From contig OX597818.1 in the NCBI GenBank assembly GCA_951406725.2, forward strand, positions 102,486,001 through 102,550,000: 64,000 bases of DNA. The letters are read 5' to 3'. The first letter of the stretch is position 1. Each line of letters starts with the position of its first letter. Under the pieces are notes generated by a model, which saw nothing but the letters and a program-made list of their open reading frames with translations, was not told the origin of the DNA and made no database searches. The DNA is from Octopus vulgaris. Lineage: Eukaryota. The translations under genes were made by a program, and so were the position numbers. Shown in pieces: positions 9,954-45,793 of this stretch.

Positions 9954-10046
9954 CCTTTCTTTCCTGATGAGAAGATTACATAATGCACTCTTTATTCCTT
10001 TGGAATGAAAACATGCTGTCTTCGAAACATATGTCGAGAGTAAAGG
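9954..10046 (+). ncRNA. Type I hammerhead ribozyme with enlarged stem II
   Basis: ctttc-CTGATGA-gaaga...tcttc-GAAA-catatg-TC-gagag; stem I ctttc/gagag extended by ccttt/aaagg; palindromic stem III; GUC triplet. Confidence 0.8.
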
Positions 10047-17031: not shown

Positions 17032-17712
17032 ATGTGTGTATATGTATATAAAGGTACATATATATATGTATGCATCAAAAGAGTACATTGGAAAAGGTTG
17101 GTAAATATTTTATGCCATGTTACACTTGTTTCCATATAGCTTAGGTGCTACAAAGTTAAACATGTAGAAAAACATTCACGGAATCTCCTATTCCTAATCG
17201 TCTAGGTAACGATTCAGAATTAAAACAAAATTGCTCCGAATTCTGCTGTCAGTTTCAATCGAGAGCATGTTGAAAGTTAGAAGGGAAAGTTAGATAATAT
17301 GAAAGATAATAATTAAGAGACTGTATGAACGAACGAGAGAAACTACATATATAACACACATATATATATACATATATGTGTGCGTATGTATGTATGTATG
17401 TATGTATATCACATACATTTACACTTCCTTTCGTAAAACCTGATATCTCTCTCACTATTCTCTTCTCCGCATTAAGGCTACGTTCCATGTGAAACACACA
17501 AGACAACAGAAGTGATCTGTGACTAAGCGCATTAATACTTTGCCTTTACAAACTGTTGAAACGCAAACTGAGCCCTATATCAACTTGGACACTGCACTCA
17601 ACACTGTTGATATCAATGATGGCATGCTATATGCTTTTCCCAGCGACAAACCGTCGCTGATCTCGAAAAAAGGAGAAATAAATTATATTAAATCTCTGAG
17701 AAAGAGTAGCAA

Positions 17713-18030
17713 TACAGAATCGTAACATATAACTGCCAACCAAGCGTAGCGTCCCATGCGGAACAGTGCTACTGACATTTATAACCTCAGGAAGACATCT
17801 CTTCCAGCTGGCTAATGACACACATTTTGTGTCCGGTTAGTATTTTCAAGGGAGGTTATCACTCCCATTTCTAGCCTTGCGTGATTCACACGGACTCGAG
17901 TTTCAGGGTGGTTATCCGTCCTCAGCATGCGTTTAGCACAGGCTACTGATGAAAACTCACACTACTCGCAAAATACTATGTGAGAATTCATCACTAGCTG
18001 CTGATTAACTCATGCTGAGGACGGGTAATC
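17713..18030 (-). mobile_element. Old copy of the 353-bp HHR element, with decayed HHR at 17887-17931
   Basis: Colinear similarity to 43897-44125 including cacacggactcgagtttc; CTGAGGA/GAAA core on the minus strand; short inverted copy at 18011-18030. Confidence 0.75.
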
Positions 18031-42106: not shown

Positions 42107-42148
<42 letters not shown>

Positions 42149-42175
42149 CATACACACACACATATATATATATAT

Positions 42176-42224
<49 letters not shown>

Positions 42225-42253
42225 TGTATATATATATATATATATATATTAAT

Positions 42254-42303
<50 letters not shown>

Positions 42304-42538
42304 AATTCATAATTAATCAATATAGGGTGGCAAAAAAATTTTGTAGAATCTTATTGCCACCAGCGGCCTAGTGGGAAAAAAATTAAATAGTCATAAACCA
42401 TTTTTAAGTTCAACATCACAATCAAGGAACGGCCATAATAGGCCATTCACCCACTAGAAATAACAGCCAAAAGCTTCAACCGCAAAATAACATCAATTCC
42501 GTAAACCAGGAGAAAATTAAAAAAACATTTACCCTGTA

Positions 42539-42645
42539 ATTTCTTATACGATGCACCGTTTCGTCTACTGTTTAATGGTAAACTAACCTGATTAAATTAA
42601 ATCAAGCCAATCTACCATAGGCCCTTAGATTCATCAGTAAGAAAT
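42539..42645 (-). ncRNA. Type I hammerhead ribozyme, element A copy 1
   Basis: Reverse complement of 43112-43218. Confidence 0.72.
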
Positions 42646-43111
42646 AGCCAAGTCGGAACAGATATTTTTCACGAGGCAAACTCGTCCCTGCCTCGGCAAT
42701 ATCTGACCTAAAATTTTCAAATCATCGCACTCGCGCCAAATTTATCGGCAGCAAATAAATATAAGCCGCCGATTCCATTACGGAACTAACCAGAAAATTC
42801 ATAATTAATCAATATAGGGTGGCAAAAAAATTTTGTAGAATCTTATTGCCACCAGCGGCCTAGTGGGAAAAAATTAAATAGTCATAAACCATTTTTAAGT
42901 TCAACATCACAATCAAGGAACGGCCATAATAGGCCATTCACCCACTAGAAATAACAGCCAAAAGCTTCAACCGCAAAATAACATCAATTCCGTAAACCAG
43001 GAGAAAATTAAAAAAATTTGGCGCGAGTGCGATGATTTGAAAATTTTAGGTCAGATATTGCCGAGGCAGGGACGAGTTTGCCTCGTGAAAAATATCTGTT
43101 CCGACTTGGCT

Positions 43112-43218
43112 ATTTCTTACTGATGAATCTAAGGGCCTATGGTAGATTGGCTTGATTTAATTTAATCAGGTTAGTTTACCATTAAACAGTAGACGAAACG
43201 GTGCATCGTATAAGAAAT
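43112..43218 (+). ncRNA. Type I hammerhead ribozyme, element A copy 2
   Basis: atttctta-CTGATGA-(68 nt, tcta/taga)-GAAA-cggtgcatcg-TA-taagaaat; 8-bp stem I, GUA triplet; A-C mismatch at the base of stem II. Confidence 0.72.
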
Positions 43219-43601
43219 TACAGGGTAAATGTTTTTTTAATTTTCTCCTGGTTTACGGAATTGATGTTATTTTGCGGTTGAAGATTTTGGCTGTTATTTC
43301 TAGTGGGTGAATGGCCTATTATGGCCGTTCCTTGATTGTGATGTTGAACTTAAAAATGGTTTATGACTATTTAATTTTTTCCCACTAGGTCGCTGGTGGC
43401 AATAAGATTCTACAAAATTTTTTGCCACCCTATATTGATTAATTATGAATTTTCTGGTTAGTTCCGTAATGGAATCGGCGGCTTATATTTATTTGCTGCC
43501 GATAAATTTGGCGCGAGTGCGATGATTTGAAAATTTTAGGTCAGATATTGCCGAGGCAGGGACGAGTTTGCCTCGTGAAAAATATCTGTTCCGACTTGGC
43601 T

Positions 43602-43708
43602 ATTTCTTACTGATGAATCTAAGGGCCTATGGTAGATTGGCTTGATTTAATATAATCAGGTTAGTTTACCATTAAACAGTAGACGAAACGGTGCATCGTA
43701 TAAGAAAT
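43602..43708 (+). ncRNA. Type I hammerhead ribozyme, element A copy 3
   Basis: Same motif 490 nt downstream of copy 2, with one substitution in a loop. Confidence 0.72.
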
Positions 43709-43827
43709 TACAGGGTAAATGTTTTTTTAATTTTCTCCTGGTTTATGGAATTGATGTTATTTTGCGGTTGAAGCTTTTGGCTGTTATTTCTAGTGGGTGA
43801 ATGGCCTATTATGGCCGTTCCTTGATT

Positions 43828-43868
<41 letters not shown>

Positions 43869-44080
43869 CAATGATAAATATCAAAGTGAGTTATATACAG
43901 TAGCGGTAACACATCGTGACGTATTTTTGCCATTTCAATATGGCTAACCCCTAAGGGTGGATGCTACTGTAGTTTTTAGCCCCAGGAGGACACACTCCTC
44001 CAGCTGGCCATAGACACACTATCTGTGTCCTGTCAGTATTTGCAAAGGGAAGTCATCCTTCCCGTCTTCAACTTATGATA

Positions 44081-44125
44081 CACACGGACTCGAGTTTCGA
44101 GGTATTGACCTCTCGTCAGCGTGTG
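44081..44125 (-). ncRNA. Canonical minimal type I hammerhead ribozyme
   Basis: cacacg-CTGACGA-gagg tcaata cctc-GAAA-ctcgag-TC-cgtgtg: perfect core, 6-bp stem I, palindromic stem III, GUC. Confidence 0.92.
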
Positions 44126-44423
44126 ACAATCATAGTTGTCGCCGAGAATTAGATTTCCTTCACAAATACTTATACTTTTTCCAGCGTCCACTGTCGCTGA
44201 TATTGAAAAAGTGAAATCAAACAATGATAAATATCAAAGTGAGTTATATACAGTAGCGGTAACACATCGTGACGTATTTTTGCCATTTCAATATGGCTAA
44301 CCCCTAAGGGTGGATGCTACTGTAATTTTTAGCCCCAGGAGGACACACTCCTCCAGCTGGCCATAGACACACTATCTGTGTCCTGTCAGTATTTGCAAAG
44401 GGAAGTCATCCTTCCCGTCTTCC

Positions 44424-44464
44424 CGCTGACGAGAGGTCAATACCTCGAAACTCGAGTCCGTGTG
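44424..44464 (+). ncRNA. HHR copy with the 5' strand of stem I truncated by the inversion
   Basis: cg-CTGACGA-gaggtcaatacctc-GAAA-ctcgag-TC-cgtgtg. Confidence 0.75.
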
Positions 44465-44630
44465 TATCATAAGTTGAAGACGGGAAGGATGACTTCCCTT
44501 TGCAAATACTGACAGGACACAGATAGTGTGTCTATGGCCAGCTGGAGGAGTGTGTCCTCCTGGGGCTAAAAACTACAGTAGCATCCACCCTTAGGGATTA
44601 GCCATATTGAAATGGCAAAAATACGTCACG

Positions 44631-44661
<31 letters not shown>

Positions 44662-45360: not shown

Positions 45361-45571
45361 CTCTCTTTTACTCTTTTACTTGTTTCACTCATTTGACTGC
45401 GGCCATGCTGGAGCACCGCCTTTAGTCGAGCAAATCGACCCCAGAACTTATTCTTTGTAAGCCCAGTACTTATTCTATCGGTTTCTTTTGCCGAACCGCT
45501 AAGTGACGGGGACGTAAACACACCAGCATCGGTTGTCAAGCAATGCTAGGGGGACAAACACAGACACACAG

Positions 45572-45634
<63 letters not shown>

Positions 45635-45793
45635 TACGACAGGCTTCTTTCAGTTTCCGTCTACCAAATCCACTCACAAGGCATTGCTCGGCCCGGAGCT
45701 ATAGCAGAAGACACTTGCCCAAGATGACACGCAGTGGGTCTGAAGCCGGAACCATGTGGTTGGTTAGCAAGCTACTTACCACACAGCCACTCC
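45361..45793 (-). mobile_element. Full-length SINE family 1
   Basis: Near-identical reverse complement of 22109-22525. Confidence 0.92.

Follow-up and report, generated by a model that had tools for sequence, protein, structure and literature searches.

Long and short ends are paired in head-to-head insertions of two hammerhead retrozyme families of Octopus vulgaris and point to a Penelope-like enzyme

The two repeats described here, A and B, are new families of a known class, the non-LTR retrozymes, and a Penelope-like enzyme likely copied them, priming from each of the two ends of a target break and starting at two internal sites on the RNA. This reading is carried by a pairing rule at the outer ends of the insertions. 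Each family has two fixed 3′ end sites (+132 and +236 in A, +171/174 and +217/220 in B, +1 being the first unit base 3′ of the predicted hammerhead cut), and a long end was found together with a short end in 55 of 56 classifiable head-to-head insertions of A and in 43 of 43 of B (98/99; p < 1e-12 against independent choice). Two fixed ends, one of each per insertion, are the tail of Penelope insertions, which identifies the enzyme class. The Penelope-like insertion footprint is present in A and B both as an inverted, 5′-truncated head-to-head copy and as two fixed 3′ ends with a one-sided tail. Inverted arm, one-sided tail and two start sites are already published features of such elements.

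The analyzed window is a stretch of 64,000 nt (G000:C5:102486001-102550000), in which AT microsatellites are plentiful. A (42303-43832, period 490) and B (43867-44632, period 353) are unrelated, adjoining repeats between (TA)n tracts (Table 1). The first-pass annotation had described both as head-to-head pairs whose left arms begin 21 nt (A) and 17 nt (B) after the predicted cut. Our mapping agrees, placing these starts at +22 and +18, and the AAA overlap of 3 nt at the A junction leaves a range of +22 to +25 for the former. The four 3′ ends were said to meet (TA)n, the right-hand ones reading GAT/ATAT, and all of them do, the left end of A via 3 extra bases. Three of the four arms exceed one unit (714, 819 and 556 nt, against 209 nt), and the start of the B right arm lies 35 nt before the predicted cut, inside the 5′ strand of hammerhead stem I. 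Both insertions have one short and one long outer end and are ordinary members of their families; they would represent independent events in neighbouring TA tracts. Elsewhere in the window, at 17620-18030, the minus strand contains an old relative of B that matches its unit at 77% over 140 nt; it has a core resembling a hammerhead, CUGAGGA...GAAACUCGAGUC, and near 18005-18025 a short inverted stretch. At 45380-45780, (CA)/(TA) tracts are surrounded by two abundant short interspersed repeats that stand back to back; they also flank loci L013, L015 and L183.

Table 1. Features of insertions A and B (window positions) and loci of the third tandem family (positions within each locus)
Feature	Position	Strand	Details
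(TA)n tract, left target of insertion A	42110-42302		
Family A left arm, 714 nt (1.46 units)	42303-43016	-	start +22; long 3′ end +242 (usual +236)
Type I hammerhead motif, A left arm	42539-42645	-	predicted cut 42547/42546; long stem II, A.C at stem II base
A inversion junction, 3-nt overlap	43014-43016
Family A right arm, 819 nt (1.67 units)	43014-43832	+	start +294; short 3′ end +132 (GTGAT/ATAT)
First type I hammerhead motif, A right arm	43112-43218	+	predicted cut 43210/43211; no Rfam match
Second hammerhead motif, A right arm	43602-43708	+	predicted cut 43700/43701
(AT)18 tract common to A right end and B left end	43831-43867
Family B left arm, 556 nt (1.58 units)	43867-44422	-	start +18; long 3′ end +220
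Type I hammerhead of B, palindromic short stem III	44081-44125	-	predicted cut 44087/44086; RF00163 32.2 bits, E 1.5e-5, gathering 34
B inversion junction, 1-nt filler	44423-44423
Family B right arm, 209 nt	44424-44632	+	start +319; short 3′ end +174 (ACGAT/ATAT); predicted cut 44458/44459
(AT)n tract, right target of insertion B	44631-44653
Third tandem family, loci	L205 2047-2592; L242 3492-4676; L179 5215-5750

The hammerhead of B matches Rfam RF00163 just under the gathering score, and a search of the window at the gathering threshold returned no match; the hammerhead of A had no Rfam match. The latter motif reads CUGAUGA, then about 60 nt of stem II, then GAAA; its stem III has 4 bp and its stem I 8 bp. 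Hammerhead cores were read in the sampled loci (205 of A, 157 of B). Among those of A, the base of stem II is A.C, A-U or G.U in the common types (A.C in the window copy), and none of the 9 commonest core types has the conserved G10.1-C11.1 pair. Of the two hammerheads, a strict motif script picked up that of B and missed that of A by its stem II rule; its match at window 9964-10035 (+), with a 53-nt stem II region, may be a chance one. The short palindromic stem III of B is of the kind described in PMC4209133, where it is reported to require a dimer. Units of A and B fold far better than shuffles (z -4.9 and -5.7), and their minimum-energy folds did not cleanly recover the hammerhead fold. 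The longest ATG/GTG/TTG open reading frame in 42300-44640 has 63 aa: A and B have no coding capacity and lack a frame for reverse transcriptase and GIY-YIG. A 20-mer of A has 1900 exact matches in the genome and a 24-mer of B has 319, which are counts of unit matches and not of insertions. The top copies of both families are 95-100% identical, dispersed and recently mobile. Four runs guessed to be RNA contain contigs of units, with no joints or ends readable in them, and were left out of the evidence.

We scanned the 2.8-Gb assembly (227 contigs) and read 162 loci, 91 of A and 71 of B, the window's own included. They came from the 40 best full-unit matches per family, which are biased to long arms, from short-query searches, and from every cluster among the exact matches that come first in genome order, 100 of the 1900 of A (44 loci) and 100 of the 319 of B (41 loci). 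Arms were mapped by blastn on the repeated unit, those below 28 nt or 85% identity being dropped, and plus-then-minus neighbours more than 5 nt apart were split as separate clusters. The segmental duplicate L162/L163 (B) was counted twice for orientation and end pairing and once in later counts. The 93 clusters of family A comprise 64 head-to-head insertions, 28 copies in a single orientation and 1 cluster with a tail-to-tail junction; the 74 of family B comprise 46 head-to-head, 28 single-orientation and no tail-to-tail. Over all clusters this gives 110 head-to-head insertions against 1 tail-to-tail junction, with 56/167 in a single orientation. Over these loci the head-to-head arrangement noticed in the window is far beyond chance, and tail-to-tail arrangements, which if equally common would have spoken against the proposal of two reverse transcriptions, are not. 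Because mini arms fall below the mapping cut-off, some single copies hide one (L145, L180, L184); this applies also to single-armed copies with TA on both sides, of which B has 14 with a short and 1 with a long end, and A 7 and 7. A stretch of (TA)4 or longer lies within 24 nt of 205 of the 218 outer ends (120/128 in A, 85/90 in B). An assembly artefact was rejected, the same anatomy being present at more than 100 loci, and so was a chance repeat.

The pairing of ends also holds for the genome-order loci alone, where long and short ends were combined in 23 of 23 insertions of A and 21 of 21 of B. The exceptions in A are one insertion with two short ends and 8 with a non-standard end, and in B 3 with a non-standard end (12/110 together). 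The last two bases of most outer ends are AT and match the target over 2 nt, which is not the case for the +220 end of B. The short sites of both families are predicted to lie in a hairpin loop within a multibranch stem. In contrast to the fixed 3′ ends, the 5′ starts of the arms are variable, and the pairing rule at the outer ends is stronger than any clustering of these starts behind the cut.

The first-pass annotation had placed both inversions just behind the ribozyme cut. An inversion has two breakpoints, and the right arms start elsewhere (+294 in A, +319 in B); hence, the statement holds for the left arms only, that is, for one of the two arms per insertion. Over the sampled loci, the tabulation of breakpoints gave a different answer for each family. 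In A, the interval +1..+45 contains 28 of 124 arm starts, where 11.4 were expected (p = 7e-6), mostly those of short arms, with 4 starts in the preceding interval (-45..-1) and 8 in the following one (+46..+90). The densest 45-nt window of A starts begins at the cut (scan p = 0.001), the genome-order loci alone give 13/56 (p = 0.0014), and both arms start in +1..+45 in 8 of 62 insertions. In B, +1..+45 holds 7 of 84 starts, where 10.7 were expected (6/46 in genome order), and the peak is at +110..+154, on the 5′ side of a predicted multibranch stem (30/84; 16/46 in genome order). Arms longer than one unit are not enriched behind the cut in either family (A 8/65, p = 0.24; B 5/60, p = 0.89). 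Both left arms of the window belong to this class, and the cut-linked start is probably a coincidence for the window's B insertion and indistinguishable from one for A. The clustering is thus real for short A arms and no general rule; general clustering at the cut was rejected by its absence in B. A second pile of A starts (24/124) was observed at +181..+225, on a perfect hairpin, and breakpoints there are ambiguous because the hairpin is self-complementary.

The proposal of a self-cleaved template shares this divided outcome. In the 33 A loci not chosen for full units, 19 of 52 arms reaching the first cut upstream stop within 45 nt of it; the values to compare are 2 of 24 arms for later passes (p = 0.013) and 1 of 33 for the next 45 nt beyond (p = 0.0002); in all 64 A loci the figures are 19/110 on the first pass and 8/102 on later passes (p = 0.06). 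This fits a share of linear, cut templates in family A, although the region is AT-rich. B gave no such signal, and most breakpoints lie elsewhere in both families. One could go further and suppose that the cut sets the inversion breakpoint in general, both cDNAs running to the 5′ end of a self-cleaved RNA. Apart from the A peak, the first-pass stops and the insertions with both starts behind the cut, this would accommodate the hybrid arms at L080 (+19/+10) and L205 (+3). As a general rule it is refuted by family B, with no peak at the cut and its peak elsewhere; even in A, 96 of 124 starts are outside +1..+45 and arms pass up to seven cut sites, and the AT-rich peak region could itself favour joining. 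Moreover, hammerhead cleavage is described as dispensable for insertion in vitro in the part of PMC11167929 available to us. We regard this explanation as quite improbable.

Variants of the units inform on the template. Arms at one locus differ by 0.46% in A, against 2.1% to other loci (55 loci), and by 0.6% in B, against 1.1% (40 loci). Subfamily variants were present in both arms rather than one in 238 versus 12 cases for A and in 23 versus 7 for B. Among 44 multi-unit A loci, 217 variants were in every unit, 170 in one unit and 24 in between; the corresponding counts for 35 multi-unit B loci are 32, 100 and 6. Shared variants being mostly in all units, arrays of up to 7.9 units would descend from one unit sequence, in support of a template that repeats one unit; the first-pass annotation had suggested a circular or multimeric one. 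The spectrum speaks for a circle, or for a monomer jumped on repeatedly, more than for transcripts of aged arrays. Shared variants could also result from gene conversion, from expansion at the DNA level or from one dominant source locus, and loci L095 and L192 look mosaic, with variants in some units only.

The junctions between arms differ between families. Ungapped B junctions overlap by at least 1 nt in 26 of 29 cases and by at least 3 nt in 13 of 29, against random values of 46% and 6%, and 13 of 42 B junctions have a gap. The corresponding excess in A was not significant (15/26, p = 0.09; 36/62 with gap or filler), a measure affected by copies that differ from the window unit. Together with the 110 head-to-head insertions and the outer ends at (TA)n, the microhomology at B junctions upholds the idea that the two ends of a break in a TA tract each primed a reverse transcription. 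Identical B junctions were seen at unrelated loci, L014/L024 (two strands of a natural stem) and L068/L069, in which the units per arm differ; recurrent joining or a re-mobilised inverted structure may account for them.

Three insertions are head-to-head hybrids. At L080, an A arm stands head-to-head with a B-like arm, with a 3-nt overlap, both ends long and starts at +19 and +10. In L205, the partner of A belongs to a third hammerhead family (start +3, short-type end). L241 places a B arm, with a non-standard 3′ end (+270), head-to-head with an autonomous Penelope-like element. In L174, A continues into the third family. Such hybrids join two RNAs and are rare; a nested insertion followed by a deletion may be an alternative. 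The third tandem family has a unit of about 360 nt related to B, a CCGAUGA core, TA targets and an end at +174/176. Also, one TA tract at L080 (2235-4888) holds a B-like head-to-head insertion, the A/B-like hybrid and a further A arm.

The joining of different families in L080, L205 and L241 speaks against self-priming, in which a single target end is primed and the cDNA, or an antisense RNA, folds back and extends. Self-priming on an antisense template has been put forward for head-to-head Penelope repeats with palindromes (PMC3846280, in the part available to us); it would account for variants common to both arms and for some junctions that coincide with natural hairpins (A +185/+210; B +116/+183, the latter in two unrelated loci). 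However, the two 5′ starts are mostly at unrelated and not at mirror positions, no systematic difference in length between the arms was seen (Wilcoxon p = 0.32 and 0.98), and a fold-back does not explain why the second arm should end at the other fixed site; we hold this origin to be quite improbable. Two independent, opposite insertions into one TA tract, or a later inversion or tandem expansion at the DNA level, are very improbable and largely refuted: TA tracts do collect insertions (A beside B here; L074, L080, L178, those at L074 and L178 being separate plus/minus neighbours 500-700 nt apart) and a few arrays have variants in some units (L095, L192), but no TA tract lies between the arms, rare variants are common to both arms, and the predicted tail-to-tail and same-length pairs were seen 1 and 1 times.

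Copying from both ends of a break by a Penelope-like enzyme could proceed as follows. Both target strands would be nicked within the TA tract by the reverse transcriptase/GIY-YIG endonuclease, and each target 3′ end would pair, by AU microhomology or none, at an internal RNA start site, one arm beginning at the short site and the other at the long one (+132/+236 in A; +171/174 and +217/220 in B). The cDNAs would run until stalled at a structure, until the RNA 5′ end is reached or until they are joined. Their 3′ ends would then be joined via 1-9 nt of complementarity or a short filler, and repair would complete the insertion. The template would normally be one unit sequence read repeatedly, in the form of a circle or of a monomer that is jumped on anew; some of the family A templates may be linear, ribozyme-cut RNA that stops arms just behind the cut. 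The mechanism is inferred from the in vitro data of PMC11167929, where, in the part available to us, a Penelope-like protein is described to cut both strands and to extend them, the tail being bounded by two internal start sites. More tentatively, Penelope integration may be asymmetric, a dimer opening the TA tract with its halves obliged to start at different RNA sites, usually on one circular or self-cleaved monomer, read several times over, and sometimes on two RNAs. If this were true, the tail would be the constant distance between the two active sites along the RNA, retrozymes would mimic the double start site in structure rather than sequence, and the proportion of cut-stopped arms would measure, for each family, linear versus circular germ-line RNA.

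The partner of B in L241 is a 5′-truncated copy of an abundant resident family, a candidate helper, of which 150 of 21,327 candidates were scored. This family has many open frames of about 784 aa with RVT_1 plus GIY-YIG at the C-terminus, a C-x4-C-xx-C linker, CxxC inside the GIY-YIG, and a U3-A8 hammerhead (48 identical cores), a variant described in the part of PMC4209133 available to us. Such a linker motif (CX2-5CxxC) is described for Neptune and Nematis in the available part of PMC8557442; GIY-YIG at the C-terminus, a CCHH motif and a hammerhead in the repeat are further marks of that clade. Based on domain order and motifs we call the family Neptune-like. It forms tandems of 4433 bp at (TA)n targets, with ends near +56/60 and +90/94, and long and short ends were paired in 11 of 11 resolved head-to-head pairs, 2 more having an odd end and 1 being ambiguous; 8 pairs were picked as visible opposite-strand neighbours. 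A comparison of A and B with its pseudo-LTR (blastn, word 7) gave no match for B and one at chance level for A (E 0.41). Since the repeat of this one family compared lacks similarity to A and B, the enzyme class is well supported and the helper family is not. Tandem copies of the Neptune-like element (period 4433) at L276 (G000:C9:10669500-10679400) have a 3′ region rich in (CTT)n, and a second frame, starting just after the long end, lies upstream of a 717-aa Met-to-stop frame, from which an intron or a frameshift seems to separate it.

The dependence of animal retrozymes on Penelope-like elements has so far been argued from distribution and phylogeny. Young, short retrozyme copies offer hundreds of complete events in which ends, junction and template identity are readable, and the pairing rule, the one-unit template, the hybrids and the family-specific stop are concrete predictions for an existing in vitro system. 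The literature searched, with most subscription papers and supplements outside it, showed no counted pairing rule, hybrid arms or cut-linked stop. As far as the available parts of these papers go, the formation of Penelope-like tandem and inverted insertions and of the tail is called undefined (PMC8557442), and the steps after first priming are left open (PMC11167929).

A and B resemble metazoan non-LTR retrozymes, as described in the portions of PMC7229834 and 10.64898/2026.07.22.740005 available to us, in being non-coding and tandemly repeated, with units of a few hundred nt that each contain a single type I hammerhead, in their dispersed copies and in their stable predicted fold (z about -5). 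Mobilisation by Penelope-like elements is proposed in the same portions, in which neither inverted arms nor paired fixed ends are mentioned for retrozymes; the term "inverted" is absent from PMC7229834 and "tail" from the preprint. Cleavage and circular RNA are shown there, whereas for A and B the cut is predicted and a circle is a candidate template, and the 490-nt unit of A differs in its very long stem II and the lack of the G10.1-C11.1 pair. The inverted, 5′-truncated head-to-head copy, the one-ended tail and the hammerhead in the repeat are shared with endonuclease-bearing Penelope-like insertions (PMC3846280, PMC8557442, in their accessible parts), where a (TA)n bias is noted in clades with the linker zinc-finger motif. 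Unlike these elements, A and B have no open reading frame, and the length of their tails is about 104 nt in A and 46 nt in B, compared with 30-40 nt. Also, the tail is optional or "often" one-sided in these accounts, whereas in A and B the rule is near-strict and counted.

The PAc element, a Poseidon of Anolis, likewise has two internal starts delimiting the tail, AT-rich cleavage and both strands cut and extended, and a dimer is predicted for it, according to the part of PMC11167929 available to us. In that in vitro account no start-site difference between strands was observed, whereas the arms of one A or B event use different sites; the PAc start is not homologous to the cut DNA, whereas most A and B ends show a 2-nt AT microhomology; and hammerhead cleavage is dispensable, whereas family A has a cut-linked stop. 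Finally, A and B are like L1 twin priming, as presented in the accessible text of 10.1101/2024.08.27.596794, in that both target ends prime on RNA and head-to-head joining occurs by microcomplementarity. In L1, however, the second priming occurs at an internal site given by chance and the two arms represent different stretches of the RNA, whereas A and B have fixed sites and overlapping arms.
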